Made by a program: the position numbers and the translations under genes
The notes under the pieces: generated by a model
Databases searched by the model: none
Told to the model about the DNA's origin: nothing
What the model saw: only the letters and a program-made list of their open reading frames with translations
Part shown: positions 5,709 to 63,641 of the stretch, in pieces
Position numbering within the stretch: the stretch's first letter is position 1
Layout: each line of letters starts with the position of its first letter
Source of the DNA: an uncultured Verrucomicrobiae bacterium
Lineage (GTDB): Bacteria; Verrucomicrobiota; Verrucomicrobiia; Limisphaerales; UBA11358
Direction: 5' to 3'
Assembly (NCBI GenBank): GCA_963802515.1
Contig: CAWDIX010000002.1
Coordinates: forward strand, 566,857-630,856
Length of the DNA: 64,000 nt

Positions 5709-8700
5709 TCATTCGTTTTGTTCGTTGTTGTTCAATTCTTTGGGATGGGTCACTGGCAACGTCACAATAAACGTAGCCCCCGATCCCGGTTTGCTCTTCG
5801 CGGTGATGTCACCACGGTGAAACACGGCAATTTTCCGGGCAATTGCCAGCCCCATGCCCGTGCCTTCGTATTCGTTCCGGCTGTGCAACCGCTGAAACAC
5901 ATTGAAGATCCGGTCCAGATATTTTTCGTCGAATCCAATGCCATTGTCGCTGACCGTCAAACGGCAAAGTTTCTTCGCCATGCCGGTGCCGCCCTCCGGT
6001 GTCGGACCGGCAATGATTTCCGCCGCGACTTTGACCACGGGCGGCGCCTCGGGACGGCGGAATTTGAGCGCGTTGCCGATCAAGTTTTGCAGCAACTGAC
6101 GCATCTGCAGCGCCTCGGCGTCAATCACCGGAAGCGTTTCCACTTCGACACGGCCCTTGACCTGTTCAATCCGCCCCTCCAAATCGGCCAAAACTTCACG
6201 GGCCACTTCGGCCAGGTCAACCTGGACGAACGGACGGGCCTTGGTCGTGACGCGCGAAAAAGACAGCAAATCGTTAATCAGCGTTTGCATGCGCGAGGCG
6301 GCCTTTTGCATCCGCTCCAGATAATCACACGATTCCTTGTCAAGCTTCCCGGCGCCCTGATCCTTGAGCCGTTCGCCGAAAACCACAATTTTTCGCAACG
6401 GTTCCTGCAAATCATGCGAGGCGACATAGGCAAAATCCTGCAACTCCCGGTTGCTGCGTTCAAGCTGGGCCGTGAACTGGCGCAATTTCTCCTCACTGTT
6501 CCGCAGGGCATCTTCCGCCCGCTTGCGTGCCGTGATGTCACTGCCAATACCCACCAGCCCGGTAATTTTGCCGCTCTGATCGCGCAGCGGCAGTTTGCTG
6601 GTCAGCAGCCAGTGTTTCCGGCCTTTTTCGTCGAAGAAAAACTCCTCCCGTTTGAGCACCGGGTAACCCTGAATCACCTTCTGGTCATCAGCCCAGAATT
6701 TCTCGGCGATGTCCTTGGGGAACAGATCGAAATCCGTTTTGCCGATCGCCTCGGCCTCGGTTTTGCAGCGCAGATTTTTCAGGTCAGCTGGGTTGGCCAG
6801 TGTTTTCCGGCAGGCGGCGTCCTTGGCGTAAATGGAATCCGGCAGGTTGTCAATCAAGGTGCGCAATAGAAGGCGCTCCCGGGCCAGGGCCCCTTCCGTC
6901 TCTTTGATCGCCGTCACGTCCTTGGAAACGCCAAATGTGCCGACGATGTTTCCGTCCCTGTCACGCCATGGCATCTTTGTCGAGAGCCACCAAACGCCCG
7001 TGCCGTCGGGCAGTTTCACTCTTTGGAGTTTGCCCACGATCGGCCGGCCGGTGCGAATAATTTCCTGCTCGTCGTCATACGCGGCGCGCGCGTGCGCCTC
7101 CGGGTAAGTGTCGAAATCCGTTTTCCCGATCAACCATTCGCCGAAAGCCTTAACGCCTGCCAGATGGGCTGGCCACTCGCTGGCATCGGCGGCCGGATGG
7201 GCGGCGCGATAGCTGCAGCGGACGGTTTGGAATGTAGATTCCACCTTCGATCTGCTCGCTCGCACGAGGTGGGATTGGCAATCTTTGAAATAGATGTCGT
7301 CCGGAATGGTATCCAAAAGCGTATGAAACAGTTCCTTTTCGTATGCCAGTTTGGCTTCCACCCGCTTGGATTCGGTGATGTCCCGTCCGATACCCACGAG
7401 ACCGGTGATTTTTCCATTTTGATCGCGCAGCGGCAGCTTGCTGGTCAGCAGCCAGTGCTCCTGGCCTGCTTCGTCCAGGAATTTTTCCTCCCGGTTGAGC
7501 ACCGGCTGGCCGTGGATCACCTTCTGGTCGTCGGCCCAGAATTTTTCGGCGTCGTCCTTCGAAAAGAGATCAAAATCGCTCTTCCCAATGGCCTCGGCCT
7601 CGGTTTTGCAGCGGACGTTCTTCAAGTCGGCCAAATTAACCAGTGTCTTCCGGCCCTCGGTGTCCTTGATGTAAACGGCATCCGGCAGGTTGTCAATCAG
7701 GGTGCGCAGGAGGCGGCGTTCCTGGGCCAGTGCCTCCTCCGCGTGTTTCTGCTGCGTGATGTCCCGGTTGATGCCCGCGACGCCAATCACCTTGCCCGCC
7801 GCGTCCCGCAGCGGCACCTTGGTCACCGAAGCCCAGGTGACTTCGCCGCCGGGCTGGGTCTGCGCTTCGATCTTGTTGATCAAAGGCTGGCCCGTCTGGA
7901 TGATCTTTTGCTCGTCCTGGAAAAACTCCTGGGCTTTGTCCGGCGGAAAAAAATCAAAGTCCGTTTTGCCGACGGCTTGTTCCGGGTCCGCCACCCCGAT
8001 GCGCTTGGCGAGCGCCTGGCTGAGCTTGAGAAACCGCGATTGGCTGTCCTTGAAATAAATCCGGTCGGGAACGTTGTCCAGCATCGCCTGCAATAGCTGT
8101 TGGGCCCTGACCAGGGCTTCTTCCGCTCGCTCCCGTTCGGCGATTTGTTGTTGCAGCGCCACATTCCTCTCGGAAAGCTCGGCGGTGCGCTCGGCCACCC
8201 GTTTTTCCAGTTCGTCGCGTGACTGGCGCAGCGCCTCTTCCGTCCGTTTTTGCTCCGTAATGTCCCGGTTGATGCCCGCGATGCCGGCCACTTTGCCCGC
8301 CTTGTCCCGCAGGGGCACCTTGGTGGTGGAGGTCCAGGCGATTTCGCCGTTGGGCAGGATCTGGCGCTCGGTCTTGTTGACCAGCGCCTCGCCGGTGCGG
8401 ATAATCCGCTGCTCATCCTGGTAAAATTCCTCGGCCTTTTCCCTGGGATTGAAATCAAAGTCCGTCTTGCCAACGGCTTCTTCGGGGTCTTTCACGCCCA
8501 GCCGGTTGGCGAGCGTTTTGCTGAGCTTCAAAAACCGGGACTGGGTGTCCTTGAAATAAATCCGGTCGGGGACATTGTCCAGGATCGCCTGCAACAGCAG
8601 GTGGGCGCCGGCCATCGCCTCCTCCGTTCGCTTCAGTTCCGTGATGTCCCGGCTGATACCCATCAAGCCCACCACGGCCTGTTGCTTGTCCCGCAGTGGC

Positions 8701-52002: not shown

Positions 52003-53922
52003 TCAACTACCGCTCGGTAACGCCGCTGCCTTGATTGCGGTCAGTTCTTCCCATCGGGCATAGAGCTTTGCGAGGGTTTCCTTTGCGGCGGCGAGGTCGG
52101 CCACCAGCTGGTTCGTTTGCGTGGCGTGGGTGCGATGAAAATCCGGCGAGGCGAACAGCCCTTCGATACGGGCAATTTCCGCGTCCACAGCGTGTATCTT
52201 CGCTTCCATCCCTTCCAGTTCGCGCGCTTCCGCGAATGAGAGTTTGCGGGGCTTTGCGGGTTTCGCTGCCTTCGTAGCGGCGACTCGGGAGAGCGCCGCT
52301 GTTTTATTAAAAGCTAAGATGGCGGCGCTCTGCCGAGTCGCCGCTACAACCTGCCGTTGTTTTTTCTCCAGGTAATAATCGTAGTCGCCGACGCTGTGGT
52401 GGATTTTTTCGTCGCCTTCAAAAGCGAGGATGTCGGTGCAAACGCGGTTGAGAAAATAGCGGTCGTGGCTTACGACGCACACCACGCCGGGGAACGCAAT
52501 CAGCGCCTCCTCCAGCACCCGCAACGTCGGCAGGTCCAAATCATTCGTCGGCTCGTCGAGGATGAGGAAGTTGCCGCCGTTTTTCAGGATGCGCGCGAGC
52601 AACAGCCGGCTGCGTTCCCCGCCGGAAATCTTTTTGACCTGCGTCAGGATGCGTTCGTCAGCGAACAGGAAGCGCTTCAGGTACGAGCGCACGGAGATTT
52701 TCGATTCGCCCCAGATGACAAACTCCGTGCCGTCGGACGCCTCTTCCAGCACCGTGTGCTCGTCGTTCAATTGCAGGCGGCTCTGGTCCACGTAATTGAA
52801 CTTCGTAAGCTGGCCAGCCTTCACCGTGCCTTCCGTCGGTGCGACCTCGCCGAGGATGATTTTCAACAGCGTGGTTTTGCCCAGGCCGTTCCGGCCGCAG
52901 ACGCCCACGCGTTTGCCATTCTCGAAGGTGAAATTGAATCCGCGAAACAAGGTGCGCCCGCCGAGGTCCATGCCCACATTGGCCAACTCCACCGTGCGAT
53001 TGCCCAGTTGCGGCGGCGGCGGGATGACCAGTTCCATGTCCTCCTCAATCACCGGCCCGTCCTGGGCCGCGGTTTCGTAGTAACGCTCGAAACGGTCCTT
53101 CTGTTTGCTGCGTTGGGCGCGCGGGCCTTGCCGCACCCACGCCAGTTCCTTTTTCAGAAACATCTGCCGCTTGTGCTCGATCACCGCGTCAGCGGCCTGG
53201 CGCTCGGCCTTGTCGAGCAGGTAATCGGTGTAATTGCCGTCGTGCCACCAGAACCGTCCGTCGCTCAACTCGACGATGCGGCCCACCACGCGGTCGAGGA
53301 AATAGCGGTCGTGCGTCACCACGATGAACGTGCCGCTGAAGTTTTCGAGAAATTCCGCGACCCACTCGATGGATTCCGGGTCGAGATGGTTCGTCGGCTC
53401 GTCGAGCATCAGGCAATCCGGGCGCGAAACAATGGCCCGCGCCAGCGCCACGCGCCGTTTCTCGCCGCCGGAAAGCGTTTCGATGCGGCGCGCGCCGTCC
53501 GGACAATTCAGGTGCGAGAGCGCCGTCTCGATGCGTTGATCGAGCGTCCAGCCTTCGAGCGATTGGATGCGATGTTCCAGTTCCTCATGCCGTTTCGAGT
53601 CATGCGGCAACGCTTCAAATTCCGCGATGAGGTCGAGCACGTGTTTCGCTCCTGCGCGCACATTGCCGCGCACGTCGAGCGCCGGATCGAGCGTGAAATC
53701 CTGCGAAAGATAACTCACCACCAGGTCCCGCCGCCGCGTGACGGTGCCCGAATCCGGCGATTGCAGTCCGGCGAGGATTTTCAGGAACGTCGTTTTGCCG
53801 CTGCCGTTGCGACCGACCAGCCCGATGCGTTGTCCCTCGTCAACCGCAAGTGTCGCACGGTCGAGCACCACGCGGTCGCCGTAGCGCACGGTCAATTCGG
53901 TGGCGTTGAGGATGGTGGACAT
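52003..53922 (-). CDS. ABC-F family ATPase (Uup/EttA-like, two ABC domains, C-terminal coiled coil)
   Basis: The ATG at 53922 is followed by GLVGRNGSGKTTFLK and GVCGRNGLGKTTLLK (Walker A twice), and LSGGEKRRVALA and ISGGERSRLLLA (signatures). There is no TM domain. Confidence 0.92.
   Translation of the reverse strand: MSTILNATELTVRYGDRVVLDRATLAVDEGQRIGLVGRNGSGKTTFLKILAGLQSPDSGTVTRRRDLVVSYLSQDFTLDPALDVRGNVRAGAKHVLDLIAEFEALPHDSKRHEELEHRIQSLEGWTLDQRIETALSHLNCPDGARRIETLSGGEKRRVALARAIVSRPDCLMLDEPTNHLDPESIEWVAEFLENFSGTFIVVTHDRYFLDRVVGRIVELSDGRFWWHDGNYTDYLLDKAERQAADAVIEHKRQMFLKKELAWVRQGPRAQRSKQKDRFERYYETAAQDGPVIEEDMELVIPPPPQLGNRTVELANVGMDLGGRTLFRGFNFTFENGKRVGVCGRNGLGKTTLLKIILGEVAPTEGTVKAGQLTKFNYVDQSRLQLNDEHTVLEEASDGTEFVIWGESKISVRSYLKRFLFADERILTQVKKISGGERSRLLLARILKNGGNFLILDEPTNDLDLPTLRVLEEALIAFPGVVCVVSHDRYFLNRVCTDILAFEGDEKIHHSVGDYDYYLEKKQRQVVAATRQSAAILAFNKTAALSRVAATKAAKPAKPRKLSFAEARELEGMEAKIHAVDAEIARIEGLFASPDFHRTHATQTNQLVADLAAAKETLAKLYARWEELTAIKAAALPSGS
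52274..52347. repeat. 26-bp-arm palindromic element (family P2) inside the ABC-F coding sequence
   Basis: gtagcggcgactcgggagagcgccgc - 22-nt AT-rich loop - gcggcgctctgccgagtcgccgctac (one mismatch between arms). On the minus strand it is translated in frame as ...VVAATRQSAAILAFNKTAALSRVAAT... Confidence 0.85.
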
Positions 53923-54069: not shown

Positions 54070-54097
54070 GGTAACCATTCGCTTCCAACACGTCAGG
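54070..54097 (+). promoter_or_regulatory. ECF-type promoter candidate GGTAACC-N14-CGTCAGG upstream of the sigma gene
   Basis: GGTAACC at 54070-54076 and CGTCAGG at 54091-54097, 30 nt before the ATG at 54127. The same bipartite motif recurs at 54890-54917. Confidence 0.5.
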
Positions 54098-54126
54098 CAC
54101 CTGTGGCATGATTTGTCCAGATTCCG

Positions 54127-54879
54127 ATGACCGCTGAGCCGACACCACCGACGCCCTGTCACCCATTGCAGGGGGCGCCGGGCGAGGATTTTCGGACGAC
54201 GCGCTGGACACAGGTCAGCCGGGCGAAAGCCGACTCGCCGGAGGGTCGCCGCGCCCTGGCCGAATTATGCAACGCCTACTACGAACCGGTGGCCGCATTC
54301 CTCCGCTACGAGTTGCGCGACGCGGATGCCGCGCGCGAACTCGCGCACGACTTCTTCGCCCACATGCTGGCGGGCGGGGCCATCGCCCGCGCCGAGCAGG
54401 AGCGCGGCCGGTTCCGTTCCTACCTGCTCGGTGCGGTGAAGCATTTTCTCTCGCATCAACGCGAGGCGCTGCAGCGGCTTAAACGCGGCGGCGGCGTGGA
54501 AACCATTTCGCTGAATGAAACCGAAGCCCGTTCAGTGCCGGATGCCGGCGTGTTGTCGCCCGACGCCGCCTTTGACCGGCAATGGGCGCTGACGGTGGTG
54601 GCACACGCGCTGGAAGCGCTCCGATGCGAATGCGTCGCTGAAGGGCGCGCGGATTTCTTCGAACTGGTCAAACCGTGGCTCACCGGCGACGCCGCGCGCG
54701 GCGACCAGGCGGCGCTGGCGGCCGGTCGCGGCATGAACGCGAACGCGCTGAAGGTCGCAGTGCATCGCTTGAAGCGGCGTTTCCGCCAGTTGCTGAAGGC
54801 GGAAGTTGCCGGCACACTCGACGACCCCGGCCTGGTCGAGGCCGAGATGCGCGCTCTGTTCGCCGCCCTGGGAAGTTGA
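54127..54879 (+). CDS. ECF sigma factor of the kinase-associated type
   Basis: TTRWTQVSRAKADSPEGRRALAELCNAYYEPVAAFLRY...LAHDFFAHML, with region 4-like ALKVAVHRLKRRFRQLL. It lies directly upstream of a Ser/Thr kinase gene. Confidence 0.85.
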   Translation: MTAEPTPPTPCHPLQGAPGEDFRTTRWTQVSRAKADSPEGRRALAELCNAYYEPVAAFLRYELRDADAARELAHDFFAHMLAGGAIARAEQERGRFRSYLLGAVKHFLSHQREALQRLKRGGGVETISLNETEARSVPDAGVLSPDAAFDRQWALTVVAHALEALRCECVAEGRADFFELVKPWLTGDAARGDQAALAAGRGMNANALKVAVHRLKRRFRQLLKAEVAGTLDDPGLVEAEMRALFAALGS

Positions 54880-54889
54880 GAAAAATGTC

Positions 54890-54917
54890 GGTAACCAAAC
54901 CACGTCGCCACGTCAGG
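54890..54917 (+). promoter_or_regulatory. second copy of GGTAACC-N14-CGTCAGG, 8 nt upstream of the kinase ATG
   Basis: GGTAACC at 54890-54896 and CGTCAGG at 54911-54917, with the kinase ATG at 54925. This would give a nearly leaderless transcript. Confidence 0.45.
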
Positions 54918-54924
54918 ACACAGT

Positions 54925-57900
54925 ATGAGCGAGACAAAGGCATCTTCGAATTCCTGTCCCAAATGCGGTGCGGTACTGCCTTCGGCCGCCACGGCCGGCC
55001 TGTGCCCGCGCTGCCTGATGGCCGAGGCGATGGCGCCGACGCAAGTTGACGCGGAACCGGCCGCGGCGCGGCAAACGCTTGCGCCGGCCGAACTCGCGCC
55101 ATTTTTTCCACAGCTGGAAATCCTCGAATGCCTCGGCCGCGGCGGCATGGGCGTGGTGTACAAGGCCCGGCAAAAAACCTTGAACCGTTTCGTCGCGCTG
55201 AAGCTGCTGGCGCCGGAGCGCGTGCGCGACACGCAGTTTGCCGAGCGCTTCACGCGCGAGGCGCAGGCGCTGGCCGCGCTGAGCCATCCGAACATCGTCA
55301 CCATTTACGACTTCGGCCAGGCAGGCGGGTTCTATTTCCTGCTCATGGAATTCGTGGACGGCGTGAATCTGCGCCAGCTCTTGCGCATGCGAAAGTTCAC
55401 GCCGGAAGAGGCGCTGGCCATCGTGCCGCCGCTGTGCGACGCGCTGCAACTGGCCCATGACCGTGGCATTGTCCACCGCGACATCAAGCCAGAGAACCTG
55501 CTGCTCGACAAAGACGGCCGCGTGAAGGTCGCCGATTTTGGCATCGCCAAAATGCTGGGGGCGGTGGACGCCGGCCGGGGCAGCGGAGCCTCTGCGCCGG
55601 GAACCACCACGCAAACCGCCGTGGGCACGCCCGGCTACAGCGCGCCCGAACAGAAGACCGATCCGCAGCGCGTGGACAGCCGGGCCGACATTTATTCGCT
55701 CGGCGTCGTTTTTTACGAAATGCTCACCGGCGAACTGCCCGGCAAACGCATCGAACCGCCATCGGCCCACATGGGCGGGATTCAAATTGACGTGCGTCTG
55801 GATGAAATCGTCCTGCGTGCCCTGGAGCGGGAACCGGAACGCCGTTACCAGACCGCCGGCGAACTCAAGACGGTCATCGAAACCGTGGTCGCTGAGACCC
55901 TGAAGCACGCCGGCGTCGGGAGCTTCGCGCCGGGGACCGGGCCCCGGGGAACAGCCGTGCTGTCGGCGCCACGCTGGTCACGCGCCGCCATTGCGGGTGC
56001 AGTGGGAATCGGATGCTTCCTGGTCGTGATGTTGTTGTGGATCATGGATTGGCCCGTATCCAGCGACCCCAGCTTCGGCCACACACTCCCCCAAATCCTG
56101 TTTCTCGACGCCGTGCTGCCCGCCGGCCTGATGGCTGTGCTGGCCGGCACGATTCTGGGGTGGATCGCCGTGGCCCGTATCCGCCGTTCGGCGGGCCGGA
56201 TCCGCGGCCTGAGATTGGCGGCTTTCGACGGGCTGTTCCTGCCGTTGCTGACGGTGGATTTCTTTATGCTGATCGTATGGGCTGTCGCGGTCAAAGCGTT
56301 GGCGGCCCACCGGGGTTTGGGCGGCTCGATGTTCCAAAACCTTTCGGACTTCGCGGCTTTCACGCTGCTGCTGGGACTGGTGGCCGGGTGGGTGGACTAT
56401 CTGATAATCCGGCCGGTCTGGCGAGCGATCAGCCGGAGCGCCGGCGGCGTCGCGCCAGACTCAGGCGCGCACACAGAGCGCAACCTGCGCTGGCTGGCTG
56501 TGGCGCTGGGTTTGATGGTTATTATCCTGCTGCCGGCTTACATGATGTTGAATGAAACCAGCCGCAAGGCCCGCTACGGCTGGGCCGCCGAAGCGGGAAT
56601 AGAGCTGAATTACCAGGTATTCGAAGCGGACGCGGCTCTGGTGGACCAACGGGTACCCTTTGACGTGCGTGAGCCGGGCAACGCGCTTTCCAGCGCCGGA
56701 ACCTACACCTTGGCGCCGACGTACACCGCGGTGGCTCAAATGGCGGAAATCGACGGCGCCATCCTGAGCGCCCTGCAGCAACCTGCCGCCACCAATTCCG
56801 GCCTCCTGGTCAATGCCACCAAAAAGGGAGAAAGCCTCTATCAGTGGAGATCGGACGCCTGGAGCTACAAGACCGATCAGGCCAGCGGCAAAGGGCAAGG
56901 CTTTTGCGGCATGGGCCGCGACCGGCAGTCGGTCAGATTCCGGATACGCTACCAGGTCAGCCATATTGTTGGCGGCAATGCGCGGCACCCGGTCACCGCG
57001 GAGATCTCCTACGATGGCCCAACGCCGCCCATGGGAAAAGCGCGCGCCTTCTTCATCCCATTCGGCCGCGACCAGCAGGCCAAATATCTGGTTATCGTGT
57101 TTACAGCCAAAGCGGCTTCCAAGGGCACGGCCTCGGAACCACCGCCGGCAGGCCCGGTGGAGTTGAAATGGAAAGCGCCAGCAGGTCCCGCCGACAGCCG
57201 AGTCATTGTCGAAGGCAAGGGATGGGGAGGTTTCAACGTTGGGGCCACGCGCGAGGAACTTATCAAAGCCCTCGGCCAGCCCGACAACGATTCGGATAAT
57301 CACTGGATGAAGTGGGACCAGATCCACGTGGATTGCCTCGTCGATGATGCCCGCGGCGCCTTCGAACTGCGGTTCGACGAAGGCTTTCCGGGACTTACCA
57401 CTGCGGGGATTGGGATTGGCTCTCACCTCAAAGACGCCCTGGCCGCCTACGGCGAACCGAGTTCGCAGAAGAACGTCGGAAGCGCGAAGAAAGCGCTCTG
57501 GTTCTCCAAAGGCATCCTGATCTGGTTTCACGAGGATAGGGCGGCGCAGATCGTCGTGTTTCCGAAAACAGAACAACAGTCCTCCATCGTCACGCCGCCG
57601 ACAGGCCCGGTGGAGTTGAAATTAAAATGGCCGCCGGTGGGCGAGCGCGTGGTGTTCGACGTGGAAATAAAACGAAACGGCGAGTATCTCTACCCGGGCC
57701 AGCCCGATCGCCAGCAGGAGGACCTTACCCTGGCAAAGAAATATGGGTTGACGGTGTTGCAGGCAACCCCCGGAGGCGGACATGAAGTGGAACTGGAGTT
57801 CCTCAGCATCCGGGATCGGATTGCCCTGGGAGGCCACACGATGCTGGATTACGATTCGACCCAAAAATCATCGGCGTCCAGGACGAACTCGCTGACCGAT

Positions 57901-58827
57901 TTATTTGGAAAAGTTGTCGGCTCCAAAATCCGGTATTTCCTGAATGCCAGCAACGAGGTCGAGCGAATGGAAGGCGTTGATGAACTGGAGCAACGGCTTT
58001 CGTCCGGCCTGTCGGCGAAAGCTTCCGCATTTTCCAGGATTCAGTTTAACGAAGGGAATCTCAAGCAGCTGATGAGCGGGCTGCACCTTTACCTGCCTTC
58101 CAAGGCGGTGCAACCGGGCGACACCTGGCCGGTTCAGACGGAGATGGCCATGGGCCCCCTCGGTACGGCGAGCATTGATCACACGGTTACTTTTCGAAAT
58201 TGGGAACAGCACTGGAAGCGCAACTGCGCCCGCCTGGAGTTTCAGGGAACCATGAAAACCAAACCCGGTCCTAATTCAAATCCGGCGGGTACATCCGCTT
58301 CCACCCTCGAGGGCACCGGTTCGGGTGTGGCCTGGTTCGACCCGGAACTGGGGATGGTCATTGAGACTGCCGCGAACACTGACATGAAAATGGTCATAAA
58401 CAATATGCCCAATCAGAGTGGAAACCCGGACGCCTCCGGACTGCCGCCAGGCACGATTTACCAAACGCACGATGCCGACAATGCGACCCTTCTCCAGCAC
58501 TATGTCCTCGAAGCGCCAGCCGCGAGCGCCGGCATCGGCATCATTTTCGACATGGGCGGAAAAAACATCACTATTGGCGGCATCGTTCCGGACTCGCCTG
58601 CCGCCGCTCAAGAGGACATCCATGTCGGTGACCGGATCATCGCCGTGGCCCAAGACACCGGGCCGGCGCTGCCGGTTCACGGCGGGCAGCTCGCACAGGC
58701 GATCGCTTTGATTCGAGGTTCCGCGGGCACCACGGTCCGTCTGACGCTTGTTTCTGCTGGAGAAGACGACTCCCACGCCCGGGTTGTCAGTTTGGTGCGT
58801 ACGGAACTGAAAGCGCCGCCTCCCTGA
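54925..58827 (+). CDS. Ser/Thr protein kinase with N-terminal Zn-ribbon-like CxxC pairs, TM segments, large extracytoplasmic region and C-terminal PDZ domain
   Basis: CPKCG...CPRCL, then LGRGGMGVVYKA...VALKLL, HRDIKPENLLL, DFGIAK and GTPGYSAPE. Hydrophobic segments lie around aa 350-520. C-terminal PDZ-like: GIGIIFDMGGKNITIGGIVPDSPAAAQEDIHVGDRIIAV. Confidence 0.9.
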   Translation: MSETKASSNSCPKCGAVLPSAATAGLCPRCLMAEAMAPTQVDAEPAAARQTLAPAELAPFFPQLEILECLGRGGMGVVYKARQKTLNRFVALKLLAPERVRDTQFAERFTREAQALAALSHPNIVTIYDFGQAGGFYFLLMEFVDGVNLRQLLRMRKFTPEEALAIVPPLCDALQLAHDRGIVHRDIKPENLLLDKDGRVKVADFGIAKMLGAVDAGRGSGASAPGTTTQTAVGTPGYSAPEQKTDPQRVDSRADIYSLGVVFYEMLTGELPGKRIEPPSAHMGGIQIDVRLDEIVLRALEREPERRYQTAGELKTVIETVVAETLKHAGVGSFAPGTGPRGTAVLSAPRWSRAAIAGAVGIGCFLVVMLLWIMDWPVSSDPSFGHTLPQILFLDAVLPAGLMAVLAGTILGWIAVARIRRSAGRIRGLRLAAFDGLFLPLLTVDFFMLIVWAVAVKALAAHRGLGGSMFQNLSDFAAFTLLLGLVAGWVDYLIIRPVWRAISRSAGGVAPDSGAHTERNLRWLAVALGLMVIILLPAYMMLNETSRKARYGWAAEAGIELNYQVFEADAALVDQRVPFDVREPGNALSSAGTYTLAPTYTAVAQMAEIDGAILSALQQPAATNSGLLVNATKKGESLYQWRSDAWSYKTDQASGKGQGFCGMGRDRQSVRFRIRYQVSHIVGGNARHPVTAEISYDGPTPPMGKARAFFIPFGRDQQAKYLVIVFTAKAASKGTASEPPPAGPVELKWKAPAGPADSRVIVEGKGWGGFNVGATREELIKALGQPDNDSDNHWMKWDQIHVDCLVDDARGAFELRFDEGFPGLTTAGIGIGSHLKDALAAYGEPSSQKNVGSAKKALWFSKGILIWFHEDRAAQIVVFPKTEQQSSIVTPPTGPVELKLKWPPVGERVVFDVEIKRNGEYLYPGQPDRQQEDLTLAKKYGLTVLQATPGGGHEVELEFLSIRDRIALGGHTMLDYDSTQKSSASRTNSLTDLFGKVVGSKIRYFLNASNEVERMEGVDELEQRLSSGLSAKASAFSRIQFNEGNLKQLMSGLHLYLPSKAVQPGDTWPVQTEMAMGPLGTASIDHTVTFRNWEQHWKRNCARLEFQGTMKTKPGPNSNPAGTSASTLEGTGSGVAWFDPELGMVIETAANTDMKMVINNMPNQSGNPDASGLPPGTIYQTHDADNATLLQHYVLEAPAASAGIGIIFDMGGKNITIGGIVPDSPAAAQEDIHVGDRIIAVAQDTGPALPVHGGQLAQAIALIRGSAGTTVRLTLVSAGEDDSHARVVSLVRTELKAPPP

Positions 58828-58948: not shown

Positions 58949-60613
58949 TCATTCCCGCGCCGTCTGCACCGGCAGCGCGGAGAGCGGCACGCGGCCGTTG
59001 GTTTTGGTGAAATATTCCGCCGACCATTCGTCGGCAAACAGCACGACGGGATTTTTGCCGGTGTCGTAGGCGACCCGCGCACCGGTCGGCAGCGACAGGG
59101 CGTCGAGATCATCTTCCTTCATGTCCACCGGCAGCCAGCGGACGACGGTCCACGGGGCGGATTCGAGGCGCGAGACCGCACCGTATTCGTGTTCGAGCCG
59201 GAATTGCACCACCTCGAACTGCAACGGGCCGACGGCGGCGAGCAAAGGCGTTTTGACCGACGAATTGCGAAGGTAAAGTGCCTGAATAACTCCTTCCTGC
59301 ATCAACTGGTCCAGGCCCTGGCGGAATTGCTTGAACTTCGCCGTGTTCGGATTGTGCAGATAGCTGAAGGCCTCGGGCGTGAAGCGCGGGATTTCCTTGT
59401 AAACGATTTTGGGATCGGTCGTGAGGGTATCGCCGATGCCGAAACTGTCGTGACCGACGAGGCCGATGACGTCGCCCGGCCAGGCTTCGTCCACGATTTC
59501 GCGTTCATTGCCGAAAAGTTTGTGGGAGCTGGAGAGGCGCACCTTCTTTTCCGACCGCGAATGATGCACCGTCATGTCGCGTTCGAACTTGCCCGAACAG
59601 ACACGAACGAACGCGATGCGGTCGCGATGCCGCGGGTCCATGTTCGCCTGAATCTTGAAGATGAAACCGGAGAAGGCGGGGTGTTCGGGACTGATAAAGT
59701 TTGGAGTTCCGCCTTCAGGCGGATTTGAATTTGCACGTTTTCCATTCGCCGGGCCGCCTGAAGGCGGAACTCTGAACCTGCCGCGCGGTCCGGGCGCGTG
59801 TTTCAGGAACCCGTCGAGCAAAAGCTGGACGCCGAAATTATTGAGGGCGCTGCCGAAGAACACCGGGGTCGTTCTTTCCGCAAGCACGGCGACGTCATCC
59901 CACTCGTGCCCGGCGTGTTCGAGCATTTCAAGTTCCTCGACCGTCCGGCGAAAGGTTTCGTCATCAAGTTGACCGCGCACGGCGGGATCATCCAGTCCGC
60001 CGACCTGCACCGGGGCGCGATACTGGCCGCCCGTCGTGCGTTCGAAGAGATGCATCAGCTTCGTCTGCCGGTCATACACGCCCTGAAACTCGAAGCCGTT
60101 GCCGATGGGCCAGTTCACCGGGAAAGCGCCGATGCCGAGCACGCGTTCCAGTTCATCGAGTAGCGCGAGCGGGTCCTTCATCGGGCGGTCGCACTTGTTC
60201 ATGAAGGTGAAGATGGGCACGCCGCGCTGGCGGCAAACCTCGAACAGTTTGCGTGTCTGCGGTTCGATGCCCTTGGCCGAGTCAATCACCATCACCACCG
60301 AATCCACGGCGGTGAGCACCCGGTAGGTGTCTTCGGAAAAATCCTTGTGGCCCGGCGTGTCGAGCAGGTTGAGACGGTAACCGCTGTAATCGAATTGAAG
60401 GACCGTGGAACTGATCGAAATGCCGCGTTTTTTCTCCAGCTCCATCCAGTCGGACGTGGTGGCGGCCTGGTTCCGGCGCGCGGTGACCGAGCCGGCGAGC
60501 TGCACCGCGCCGCCATACAGCAACAGCTTTTCCGTCAGCGTGGTTTTGCCCGCGTCCGGATGCGAGATGATGGCGAACGTGCGCCGTTTCTGGATTTCTT
60601 CCGCAATGCTCAC
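58949..60613 (-). CDS. prfC: peptide chain release factor 3 (carrying an in-frame repeat insertion)
   Basis: RRTFAIISHPDAGKTTLTEKLL...DTPGHKDFSEDT...FMNKCDR...FIFKIQANMDPRHRDRIAFVRV. The GTG at 60613 is preferred over the TTG at 60652. Confidence 0.92.
   Translation of the reverse strand: MSIAEEIQKRRTFAIISHPDAGKTTLTEKLLLYGGAVQLAGSVTARRNQAATTSDWMELEKKRGISISSTVLQFDYSGYRLNLLDTPGHKDFSEDTYRVLTAVDSVVMVIDSAKGIEPQTRKLFEVCRQRGVPIFTFMNKCDRPMKDPLALLDELERVLGIGAFPVNWPIGNGFEFQGVYDRQTKLMHLFERTTGGQYRAPVQVGGLDDPAVRGQLDDETFRRTVEELEMLEHAGHEWDDVAVLAERTTPVFFGSALNNFGVQLLLDGFLKHAPGPRGRFRVPPSGGPANGKRANSNPPEGGTPNFISPEHPAFSGFIFKIQANMDPRHRDRIAFVRVCSGKFERDMTVHHSRSEKKVRLSSSHKLFGNEREIVDEAWPGDVIGLVGHDSFGIGDTLTTDPKIVYKEIPRFTPEAFSYLHNPNTAKFKQFRQGLDQLMQEGVIQALYLRNSSVKTPLLAAVGPLQFEVVQFRLEHEYGAVSRLESAPWTVVRWLPVDMKEDDLDALSLPTGARVAYDTGKNPVVLFADEWSAEYFTKTNGRVPLSALPVQTARE
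59699..59777. repeat. family P1 palindromic element inside prfC
   Basis: gtttggagttccgccttcaggcgga ... gccgcctgaaggcggaactctgaac. On the minus strand it is translated in frame as ...[27 protein letters not shown]... Confidence 0.85.
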
Positions 60614-60766
60614 AAGAGCCGTAAACGATAACAGAGAATCAGGCCGGAACAAGGTTTGGATTTTGGCGATCGAACTTCATTTTAACCACGGATAACACGG
60701 ATGAACGCGGATTCAGTTCAACGAAACATGCAATTATAGCGGTTTAACTAAAACCGTGGCCGTCGG

Positions 60767-60989: not shown

Positions 60990-63641
60990 TTATATCTTCT
61001 CAAACACCAATTCGTCCCCTTTGGCGTTGACCTTGATTTTGTCCCCCGGCTTGAACTCGCCTTCGAGCAGGCGCATCGAAAGCGGGTTGAGGATTCGTTC
61101 CTGCACGGCGCGTTTGAGCGGGCGGGCGCCGAATTGCGGGTCGTATCCTTCCTTCGCCAGCAGCTTCTTCGCCGCGGCGTCCACGTCGAGCGTGAGATTT
61201 TGTTGCGCCAGCCGTTCCTTGAGTCTTCCCAGTTGGATGTCCACGATGCGCTCAATTTCGCTTTCGTCGAGGCTCTGGAAAATGATGACGTCGTCCACCC
61301 GGTTCAGGAATTCCGGCCGGAAATGCCGTTTCAACTCGGCCATAATGCGGTCGTGCAATTCGTTCGGAGTTCCGCCTTTAGGCGGTTTGTCCGAACCACG
61401 ACGACCCGATTCCGCCTGAAGGCGGGACTCCAAACTTTCTTGAATCAGGTGCGAGCCGAGGTTGCTGGTCATGATGACGATGGTGTTCTTGAAATCCACC
61501 GTCCTCCCCTGCCCGTCGGTGAGCCGGCCATCATCCAACACCTGCAACAGCACGTTGAACACGTCGTGATGCGCCTTCTCAATTTCGTCGAACAACACCA
61601 CCGAATATGGCCGGCGGCGCACCGCCTCGCTCAACTGCCCGCCTTCCTCGTAACCGACATAGCCCGGCGGCGCGCCAATGAGCCGCGCGACGGTGTGTTT
61701 CTCCATGTATTCGCTCATATCAATGCGAATCATCGCGTTTTCGTCGTCGAACAAAAATTCCGCCAGCGCGCGGGCGGTCTCGGTCTTGCCGACGCCGGTC
61801 GGGCCGAGAAAGATGAACGAGCCGATGGGCCGGTTCGGGTCCTGCAATCCGCTCCGCGCCCGGCGCACGGCGTCGGACACGGCCTTGATGGCTTCTTTCT
61901 GGCCGACCACGCGCTGCGCGAGCCGTTCCTCCATCTTCACCAGCTTTTGCCGCTCGCCCTCGAGCATCCGCGAAACCGGGATGTGCGTCCATGACGCCAC
62001 AACCTTGGCAATATCCTCGTCCGTGACTTCCTGGCGGAGCAAGCTGCTCCTGCCACCTGCAGGCGAGACGCCTGCACCACTACTTTCCAGCTTCACGAGT
62101 TTCTTTTCCAAATCGGGAATCTTGCCGTATTGAATTTCCGCCGACTTCGTCAAATCGCCTTTGCGTTGCGCCTGTTCCAGTTCGAGTTTTGCCTGCTCGA
62201 GTTGCGATTGCACCACACTCACGGCATTGACGGCGGCCTTTTCATTCTGCCATTGGGCGGTGAGCGCCTTGGACTTGTCCTTGAGATTGGCAGTTTCCTT
62301 GTCAATCAGCTTGAGCCGTTCCTTGCTGGCAGCGTCCTTTTCCTTGGCCAACGACGTGCGCTCGATTTCCAATTGCAAAATCTGCCGGTCCAACTGGTCG
62401 AGTTCAGTCGGCTTGGAATCCAGTTCCATTTTGATGCGCGACGCCGCCTCGTCCACGAGGTCAATCGCCTTGTCCGGGAGGAACCGGTCGGTGATGTAGC
62501 GATGGGACAACATCGCCGCCGCCACGAGCGCCGAATCCTGAATCCGCACGCCATGATGAACTTCGTATCGCTCCTTCAACCCGCGTAAAATTGCGATGGT
62601 CGCTTCGACGGTCGGCTCCTCCACCTTGACCGGCTGGAAACGGCGTTCGAGCGCCGGGTCTTTCTCGATGTGCTTGCGGTATTCGTCGAGCGTCGTCGCG
62701 CCCACGCAACGGAGTTCGCCGCGCGCGAGTTGCGGCTTCATGATATTGGCCGCGTCCGTCGCGCCTTCCGCCGCGCCAGCACCGACGATGGTGTGCAACT
62801 CGTCAATGAACAGAATGATTTTGCCTTCGCTGGCGACGATTTCCTTGAGAAACGCCTTGAGCCGGTCCTCGAATTCACCGCGATATTTGGCGCCGGCAAT
62901 CATCGCGCTCAGATCCATTGCCACCAGCCGCTTGTTCTTGAGCGATTCCGGCACGTCACCGCTCACGATGCGCCGCGCCAGGCCTTCGGCGATGGCGGTC
63001 TTGCCCACGCCGGGTTCACCGATCAACACCGGATTGTTTTTCGTGCGGCGCGTAAGCACCTGCATGACGCGGCGGATTTCCTCGTCACGGCCGATGACCG
63101 GGTCAATCTTGCCCTGCCGCGCCAGCGCGGTAAGGTCGCGGCCGTATTTGTCGAGCGCCTGAAATTTGGCTTCGGGATTTTCGTCGGTCACGCGCTGGTT
63201 GCCGCGCAATTCGGCGAGCGCCTTCAGTACGGCATCACGTTTCAAGCCGTGCCTGGCGAAAATCTTTTTCAGCGCCGAACCGCCGCCGTCCAGCAGGCCA
63301 AGCAGCAGATGTTCAGTACTGACATAATCGTCCTTGAGCTTGGTCGCCTCGGATTGCGCGGCATCGAGCGCCTTCTGCAAATCGCGGCCGGCGTAGGCAT
63401 CGCCGGCGCCCTGGACCTTGTGCCGGCGGGCGAGTTCGGCTTCCAACTCCGGTTTCAGCTTCGCGACCGGCACGCCGATGCGTTCGAGCAGGTCGGGGAT
63501 GAGGCTCTCGGTCTGCCCGATGAGCGCGAGCGCGAGATGTTCGCCGTCGAGTTCCTGATGCGAATGCTCGCGGGCGATGCGTTGCGCCTCCTGCAAGGCT
63601 TCCTGTGATTTGAGAGTAAGTTTCTCCGGTTGCATAACCAT
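60990..63641 (-). CDS. clpB: ATP-dependent chaperone/disaggregase ClpB (carrying an in-frame repeat insertion)
   Basis: [15 protein letters not shown] and [15 protein letters not shown] (two Walker A motifs), coiled-coil middle domain, [20 protein letters not shown]. The second ATG at 63635 may be the true start. Confidence 0.95.
61366..61435. repeat. family P1 palindromic element inside clpB
   Basis: ggagttccgcctttaggcgg - tttgtccgaaccacgacgacccgatt - ccgcctgaaggcgggactccaaac. On the minus strand it is translated in frame as ...[23 protein letters not shown]... Confidence 0.85.

Follow-up and report, generated by a model that had tools for sequence, protein, structure and literature searches.

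What controls a sigma factor gene and the kinase gene behind it when the same bipartite DNA motif stands directly in front of both? This question is raised by a 64,000-nucleotide stretch of DNA from an uncultured Verrucomicrobiae bacterium, a soil verrucomicrobium of the Limisphaerales/Pedosphaera type (contig CAWDIX010000002.1, positions 566,857 to 630,856), which we refer to, at its full length of 64 kb, as the window. It carries a gene for a putative extracytoplasmic function (ECF) sigma factor, followed by a gene for a Ser/Thr kinase. An original prediction held that the sigma factor is autoregulated and also separately drives its kinase. Conservation of the paired motif in dozens of species makes it very probable that the sigma factor turns on its own gene as well as that of the kinase. 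We also describe a conserved open reading frame (ORF) of nine codons that overlaps the sigma start and, judged by sequence comparison, is a new element here.

Two identical motif copies in the window

The motif consists of a -35-like box, GGTAACC, and a -10-like box, CGTCAGG, separated by 14 nucleotides (nt). The first copy, P1 (GGTAACCATTCGCTTCCAACACGTCAGG), ends 29 nt upstream of the sigma ATG, and the second, P2 (GGTAACCAAACCACGTCGCCACGTCAGG), lies in the 45-nt spacer between the two genes and leaves 7 nt before the kinase ATG. Both copies were verified on the forward strand with identical half-sites and spacing, and their predicted placement (30 nt before the sigma ATG and 8 nt before the kinase ATG, counting from position to position) agrees with the ORF coordinates (Table 1). 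A short run of A residues precedes each copy. The resemblance to ECF promoters in shape, noted at the outset, is also borne out, as boxes of the AAC and CGTC type are typical of such promoters.

The pair stands out clearly from the rest of the window. When up to two mismatches were allowed, three matches were found against 0.37 expected from shuffled sequences, and P1 and P2 are the only exact ones; by our own arithmetic, about 5e-4 exact matches to the 14 specified bases are expected in 128,000 positions. Scored with a position weight matrix (PWM) built from the homologous sites of other loci, P1 and P2 both reach the maximum of 25.8 bits, and the next best site, at 13.2 bits, lies at the background level of shuffled sequences. 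The motif is thus not frequent at random positions of the window.

Recent duplication of a sequence segment was considered as the source of the pair and ruled out: the P1 and P2 spacers differ, sharing a mean of 5.6 of 14 positions across loci.

The heptamer GGTAACC by itself occurs nine times in the window (3.0 ± 1.6 expected; none of 100 shuffles reached nine). The seven occurrences outside the pair, at 6662, 10417, 12454, 38468, 49884, 50544 and 60376, have no CGTC at the right distance downstream.

Conservation of the paired sites

We compared the locus with 80 loci from species-representative genomes of Verrucomicrobiota, in which the sigma factors are 47-95% identical to that of the window. 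A P1-type site precedes the sigma gene in 56 of the 80 loci and a P2-type site precedes the kinase gene in 63; 51 loci have the two together. The spacer measures 14 nt in every good site, though 13 to 16 nt had been allowed. The distances to the start codons are equally restricted: CGTC precedes the sigma ATG by 32 nt in 36 loci and by 31 nt in 6, and the kinase ATG by 11 nt in 42 loci and by 10 nt in 14. Over the 80 loci, only the two boxes show high information content, which falls to nearly zero in the 25 nt upstream; since the flanks are not conserved, the conservation of the boxes reflects more than recent common ancestry. A PWM scan of 760 kb of related loci returned matches of at least 20 bits only at the two canonical positions. 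Among the loci are those of the cultured species Chthoniobacter flavus Ellin428 (L053), Prosthecobacter fluviatilis (L072) and Brevifollis gellanilyticus (L063), and complete genomes with the module include OY760937.1, OZ260084.1 and CAWJTA010000001.1.

The genes that surround the module vary. Among the 73 loci with a called sigma ORF, the ABC-F and RF3 neighbors of the window recur only in L002 and L004. In almost every locus whose sigma factor is at least 58% identical, a kinase with an HRDxKP motif and an N-terminal CxxC..CxxC module is encoded 43-48 nt downstream of the sigma gene. The limits of the arrangement are marked by L084 (5001-10159), where the sigma factor is only 39% identical. 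It has a canonical AEDLTQ sequence in region 2.2, and a Ser/Thr kinase of 1434 amino acids (aa) is encoded 77 nt downstream, whereas the upstream region and the spacer of this locus share no motif. The paired sites therefore appear specific to a clade of at least about 58% identity, and the linkage to a kinase reaches beyond the clade that has the paired motif and the arginine substitution described below.

Explanations of the conservation at the level of RNA fail. The sites fold no better than shuffled sequences (z-scores above 0), and the conserved region has no credible match in Rfam.

Co-variation of the sites with the sigma factor

Two kinds of co-variation were found. Within loci, the P1 and P2 boxes are identical at 641 of 714 positions, compared to 608 ± 4 when loci were shuffled; none of 10,000 shuffles reached 641. 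In addition, the -35 box varies with the helix of sigma region 4.2. In about 40 loci the helix ALKVA(V/I)H accompanies GTAACC, four of them having a one-base variant of this box. ALKMAxx occurs with GT(T/G)ACC in 5 of 5 loci and SLKSxxH with GCA(A/C)C in about 8, and in five loci AFR(V/M)Axx accompanies GTAAGC or a box close to it, L053 being a poor fit. Both patterns are those expected if the adjacent sigma factor reads these boxes.

The AFR(V/M)A helix is found in a sub-clade of Verrucomicrobiaceae (L052, L059, L060, L062 and L067) in which the kinases have no CxxC pairs at the N-terminus. In L052, L059 and L060, TGTAAGC-N14-CATCAGA precedes the kinase gene. Some genomes hold two modules, such as L052 and L056 on a single contig. 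This sub-clade may represent a paralogous system with its own specificity.

Insertions, losses and extra copies

Loci in which the module has been rearranged indicate to which gene P2 belongs. In L050 (6763-7016) and L077 (6763-7123), repeat-like elements of about 210 and 280 nt, respectively, have been inserted between the sigma stop codon and P2; both carry inverted repeats, and AAGAAACTTGG is an apparent target duplication in L050. L051 (6745-7594) has a small ORF and a PIN-domain toxin gene at the same place, with the last sigma codons duplicated after the inserted cassette. Despite the insertions, the P2-type site is still located 10-11 nt before the kinase ATG in all three loci. Conversely, in L042, where the kinase is missing, the site has degenerated to CGTAACC...TGTCAGG. 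L013 (9745-10422) has a third, weaker copy, GGTAACC-N14-CGGCAGG, after the kinase gene, with GTGAGCGAG... at the usual distance and then a membrane-anchored protein of 213 aa. This protein contains a 3keto-disac_hyd (DUF1080-type) domain, as does the sensor part of the L013 kinase, and it appears that promoter and start region were duplicated along with a sensor domain. These cases link P2 to expression of the gene that follows it rather than to the 3' end of the sigma gene.

A divergent ECF-type sigma factor

The sigma gene product is characterized by an invariant F-x-T-T-R-W near the N-terminus, the sequence D-A-A-R-E-L-A-H-D-F-F in region 2.2, and the region 4.2 helix NANALKVAVHRLK. The label of ECF sigma factor that it had been given was secured only through relatives and a fold match. 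Direct matches of the window protein fall below the cutoff of every curated sigma model: 16.3 bits against 21.1 for PF07638 (Sigma70_ECF), 14.6 against 24 for PF04542, and 18.3 against 42.9 for TIGR02937. A search of solved structures with the profile of the sequence family found no sigma factor, and an hhalign comparison with Escherichia coli RpoE aligned only the helix-turn-helix of region 4.2, with a probability of 0.3. The cutoff of TIGR02937 is passed, over positions 2-164/165, by relatives with 38-40% identity and E-values from 1e-41 to 1e-52 to the window protein. At the level of sequence, membership in the ECF family is therefore supported only through transitive homology. The superfamily is very large, with 14,162 clusters at 50% identity (E <= 1e-3).

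The predicted structure points in the same direction. In the AlphaFold model (predicted local distance difference test, pLDDT, 77.7), a disordered linker (residues 125-140) connects two helical bundles, and six of the seven best Foldseek matches in the PDB are ECF sigma factors (AlgU, SigL, SigK, SigE and SigW), with probabilities up to 0.99; the E-values of these matches are weak (0.07-0.5), and the template modeling scores are low owing to the domain arrangement. On the combined strength of transitive homology, fold and the aligned region 4.2 segment, we conclude that the protein is a divergent ECF-type sigma factor.

When the protein is aligned with distant relatives in which (E/D)-A-E-D-L-T-Q is retained, A68-A69-R70-E71 fall at the DAED positions of region 2.2. 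R70 is nearly invariant, and the window protein has no Ser or Thr at this position, where sigma factors of group ECF43 have their phospho-threonine. The protein is therefore not a member of ECF43, and if phosphorylation activates it, the modification must act elsewhere. From their conservation, T24, T25, S37, S98, T156 and T230 are candidate phosphosites, with the reservation that T25 is also conserved in relatives without a kinase.

A kinase with a constant core and exchangeable sensors

The elaborate domain structure foreseen for the kinase (CxxC pairs, a bundle of transmembrane (TM) segments, an extracytoplasmic part of about 750 aa and a PDZ domain) agrees with Pfam matches and hydrophobicity, and Pfam adds a DUF6263 domain. 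The translated sequence reads GRGGMG (GxGxxG), VALK, HRDIKPEN, DFG and SAPE, so that the P-loop, catalytic lysine, HRD loop, DFG and APE motifs of Hanks-type kinases are all present. Read by the positive-inside rule, the loops place the C-terminal part (about 750 aa) outside the cell.

Residues 1 to about 325 are conserved in all of the related loci (41-87% identity). Beyond this point the kinase has been exchanged even where the sigma factors are 90-95% identical, and the complete proteins measure between 500 and about 2000 aa. One core has thus been combined with many different sensors.

An upstream ORF overlapping the sigma start

Between P1 and the sigma gene lies the start of a short ORF, MICPDSDDR*, which is out of frame with the sigma gene. 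Its ATG is located 13 nt after the CGTC of P1, within the conserved block GTGGCATGAT; together with the kinase ATG, this places a start codon at a short, fixed distance downstream of each motif copy. Of 36 loci, 30 have this ATG and the remaining six have ATA (three), AGG (two) or ACG (one); in 28 of the 30 with the ATG, the ORF is exactly nine codons long. Its fourth codon encodes Pro (CCN) in 30 of the 36 loci, with synonymous variation.

The stop codon of the upstream ORF, TGA, overlaps codons 3 and 4 of the sigma gene and requires a T at the wobble position of codon 3. Such a T is found in 38 of 40 four-fold degenerate codons at this position (GCT, ACT, TCT or CCT), compared to a background of 9.1% in the same genes, and sigma codon 4 is always GAN. 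Judged from these codon frequencies, the stop codon of the upstream ORF is under selection. Inspection of the sigma ATG revealed no recognizable Shine-Dalgarno sequence. The upstream ORF is probably translated and, as it overlaps a sigma start that lacks such a sequence, its translation would be coupled to, or gate, that of the sigma factor.

Neighboring genes and signals

The module is flanked by housekeeping genes, with a divergent ABC-F ATPase gene upstream and convergent genes for release factor RF3 and ClpB downstream. These flanks are unrelated to it, and the sigma and kinase genes form a stand-alone unit of two genes. No sigma-70-type promoter around the two genes passed our scan. Terminator-like matches around them occur only at chance level, and none lies between sigma and kinase.

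Table 1. Features of the sigma/kinase locus, in positions of the window.
Feature	Position	Strand	Remarks
ABC-F ATPase	52003-53922	-	upstream neighbor
A-run before P1	54061-54067		
P1	54070-54097	+	exact match, maximum PWM score
P1, -35-like box GGTAACC	54070-54076	+	followed by 14-nt spacer
P1, -10-like box CGTCAGG	54091-54097	+	
Upstream ORF	54108-54137	+	9 codons; +1 frame; ends 8 nt inside sigma ORF
Divergent ECF-type sigma factor	54127-54879	+	250 aa; by transitive homology and fold match
A-run before P2	54881-54885		
P2	54890-54917	+	exact match; in sigma-kinase spacer
P2, -35-like box GGTAACC	54890-54896	+	followed by 14-nt spacer
P2, -10-like box CGTCAGG	54911-54917	+	
AGGA	54915-54918		overlaps P2 -10-like box; 6 nt before kinase ATG
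Hanks-type Ser/Thr kinase	54925-58827	+	1300 aa
Zinc-ribbon-like CxxC-x12-CxxC	54955-55014	+	kinase residues 11-30
Kinase domain	55117-55881	+	kinase residues 65-319; Pfam Pkinase, 4.6e-50
About five TM segments	55975-56559	+	kinase residues 351-545; hydrophobic stretches
DUF6263	57790-58359	+	kinase residues 956-1145; Pfam, 4.5e-10
PDZ	58531-58749	+	kinase residues 1203-1275; Pfam, 1.2e-5
Release factor RF3	58949-60652	-	downstream neighbor
ClpB	60990-63641	-	downstream neighbor, after RF3

Proposed mechanism and alternatives

We consider it probable that the two genes constitute a self-contained sigma/kinase module with two promoters, P1 and P2, that are both read by the sigma factor. The original prediction of an autoregulated sigma factor that also separately drives its kinase is thereby supported, by boxes, 14-nt spacers and ATG distances conserved in more than 50 species, by the persistence of P2 with the kinase, and by the co-variation. 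RNA polymerase bearing the sigma factor would recognize GGTAACC as the -35 element through region 4.2 and CGTCAGG, 14 nt away, as the -10 element through region 2. Transcription from P1 would result in positive autoregulation. As no terminator separates the genes, the kinase would also be made from P1 read-through, on top of which P2 would provide transcripts of the kinase only; on the read-through transcripts, the AGGA within the -10 box of P2 may serve as the ribosome-binding site of the kinase. Activation would then raise the levels of both the sensor, the kinase, and the regulator, the sigma factor. Control of sigma activity by the kinase most likely proceeds through phosphorylation, with a target site that differs from the region 2.2 site of ECF43. 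The cytoplasmic zinc ribbon and the kinase domain are the constant parts of this system, and the membrane and outer sensor parts are swapped between species.

At ECF promoters, transcription typically begins about 6-9 nt downstream of CGT(C). With 10-11 nt from CGTC to the kinase ATG, P2 transcripts would begin 0-4 nt before the AUG, and from this geometry they may be leaderless or nearly so. Transcripts from P1 would start a few nt before the 9-codon upstream ORF. We speculate that both promoters launch transcripts that begin practically at an AUG, that of the upstream ORF gating the sigma factor or that of the kinase, and that induced leaderless translation differs from basal translation of read-through transcripts. 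Together with kinase control of a kind other than that of ECF43, these features would amount to a new class of sigma/kinase switch that extends across Verrucomicrobiota and has interchangeable sensors; this wider proposal is tentative, and we hold it to be rather doubtful as a whole.

Several observations weigh against the assignment of both promoters to the adjacent sigma factor, in addition to the sub-threshold matches to sigma models, the failed structure search and the weak Foldseek E-values given above. The co-variation statistics ignore phylogeny, and the four classes of helix and -35 box may correspond to about four independent events. P1 and P2 do not match each other in some distant loci, such as L052 and L059, with GTAACC or GTCACC upstream and GTAAGC downstream. 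The AGG of the -10 box may partly reflect a ribosome-binding function. The sequence TGGCATGAT that follows P1 (54104-54112) is conserved and could be the extended -10 element (TGnCATGAT) of a promoter for the housekeeping sigma factor: 29 of 36 loci have its TG, nearly all keep A2 and T6 of the hexamer, and basal transcription of the module could come from it, but such a promoter leaves the conserved stop codon of the upstream ORF unexplained. With respect to a wider regulon, no further strong site was found in the window and the 760 kb of related loci except for the weaker third copy in L013. A metagenome scan for the exact motif placed 118 of 122 sites in unrelated contexts; this is the level expected by chance, and the scan is therefore uninformative about the regulon.

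Both sites might be read by another DNA-binding protein, either a different ECF sigma factor of the genome, by cross-regulation, or a transcription factor. The adjacent sigma factor is linked to them indirectly, by sequence comparison, ECF promoters of different groups look alike in their AAC...CGTC pattern, and the mismatches between P1 and P2 in distant loci would fit a separate reader. The module, however, retains its sites in differing genomic contexts, with the neighbors of the window shared by only 2 of 73 loci, and no other regulator gene is conserved nearby. The half-sites are asymmetric in the manner of -35 and -10 elements, unlike the repeats bound by a dimeric factor, and the variant of the -35 box follows the region 4.2 helix type of the adjacent sigma factor. 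We regard a different reader as very improbable. An explanation at the level of translation has hardly better prospects and is, in our view, quite improbable: P2 would be the translation-initiation region of the kinase on a bicistronic mRNA, with AGGA as the Shine-Dalgarno sequence, and P1 would resemble it owing to a shared RNA-level signal before an AUG. The AGGA is indeed suitably placed, an ATG follows each copy at a fixed short distance (10-11 nt and 13 nt), and the kinase would be made from read-through in any case, given the lack of a terminator. What this account leaves unexplained is the conservation, in both copies, of CGTC and of GGTAACC exactly 14 nt upstream of it, as well as the co-variation of the -35 box with the DNA-binding helix; P1 moreover has only AGG, 10 nt from the ATG, and no RNA structure was found.

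The promoters could also function as proposed while the role of the kinase is a different one. It might act mainly like an anti-sigma factor, holding the sigma factor through its zinc ribbon until a signal arrives, so that P2 would provide negative feedback. Zinc-binding anti-sigma domains have Cys-rich modules, of which the conserved module ahead of the kinase domain is reminiscent. Classical ECF operons co-express the sigma factor with its inhibitor, and the phospho-acceptor of the ECF43 type is absent here. Every catalytic motif of the kinase is intact and conserved, which indicates that phosphotransfer matters, and the sub-clade without CxxC pairs retains the gene arrangement. In both ECF-kinase pairs studied, the kinase activates the sigma factor (PMC13147305, PMC8999054). 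We consider an anti-sigma-like role unlikely, and favor control of the sigma factor by phosphorylation.

Implications

Control of sigma factors by kinases is a recently established route, for which only two examples have been studied, both proteobacterial, and for most kinase-linked ECF groups no target promoter is known. Here, a sharply defined putative promoter is present twice per locus, across a phylum of poorly studied soil bacteria, which makes the system directly testable, and the co-variation of helix and -35 box offers a ready-made map of specificity. Three features, namely the Arg in place of the ECF43 phospho-acceptor, a putative promoter specific to the kinase and the overlapping small ORF, suggest layers of control that are undescribed for such pairs. 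The exchange of sensors on a constant kinase core and sigma factor illustrates how one output can be rewired to many inputs.

Comparison with known systems

The order of an ECF sigma gene followed by a Ser/Thr kinase gene had been put forward as a recognized arrangement, and ECF43 as well as other kinase-linked ECF groups are indeed known. ECF43 includes the pairs EcfP-PknT from Vibrio parahaemolyticus and EcfK-PknS from Xanthomonas citri, in which a Thr replaces the acidic DAED of region 2.2 and phosphorylation restores binding to core polymerase (PMC13147305, PMC8999054). The likeness to our locus is considerable: an ECF-type sigma factor without an anti-sigma gene is followed directly (+1) by a membrane-bound Hanks-type kinase, the sigma factor matches Pfam Sigma70_ECF and not the usual r2 and r4 models, and the DAED sequence is altered (PMC13147305, PMC8999054). 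The differences are equally pronounced. Where ECF43 sigma factors have a phospho-activated Ser/Thr in the consensus QTTA, the window clade has A-A-R-E with a near-invariant Arg. ECF43 kinases have one TM helix and tetratricopeptide (TPR) repeats, whereas the window kinase has about five TM segments, a CxxC pair, DUF6263 and PDZ domains, and no TPR. For ECF43, GTC-Xn-CAG is the promoter predicted and the members are listed as 100% Proteobacteria, in contrast to GGTAACC-N14-CGTCAGG in a host from Verrucomicrobiota. A second promoter in front of the kinase is not mentioned in the accessible text of the literature that we found on ECF43 sigma/kinase pairs. The parallel drawn earlier to phosphorylation-activated sigma factors of Vibrio thus holds for the arrangement of the genes; its mechanism cannot apply literally, because a conserved Arg occupies the position of the phospho-threonine. 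By these sequence features, the module would work like an ECF-kinase pair, yet is not an ECF43 member.

The ECF classification lists as kinase-linked groups ECF43 (Proteobacteria), ECF59, ECF61, ECF62 and ECF217 (Planctomycetes), ECF267 and ECF283, most of them without a conserved promoter and none for Verrucomicrobia. The four planctomycete groups, which correspond to the ECFSTK groups of Jogler et al. (2012), were compared by their published descriptions. They share with our module the Planctomycetes-Verrucomicrobia-Chlamydiae (PVC) superphylum, a kinase at position +1 and kinases with multiple TM segments (six in ECF59s1, at least five in ECF61), and the kinases of ECF62 have a zinc finger. 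Boxes of the GTAACC type have been reported at -35 for ECF16 and ECF127 (supplement, bioRxiv 10.1101/2019.12.11.873521). Unlike the strongly conserved putative promoter found here, those predicted for the planctomycete groups, which are listed as 100% Planctomycetes, are given as "not conserved" or "TC in -35", which has been read as no autoregulation.

In classical autoregulated ECF operons, such as sigma-W/RsiW and sigma-E/RseA, a promoter with an AAC -35 and a CGT(C) -10 element precedes the sigma gene. The module resembles these operons in having a putative promoter of that shape in front of the sigma gene (56 of 80 loci) and a regulator co-transcribed downstream. It departs from them in that the regulator is a kinase and not an anti-sigma factor, a second copy of the promoter is located between the genes, and a small ORF overlaps the sigma start.

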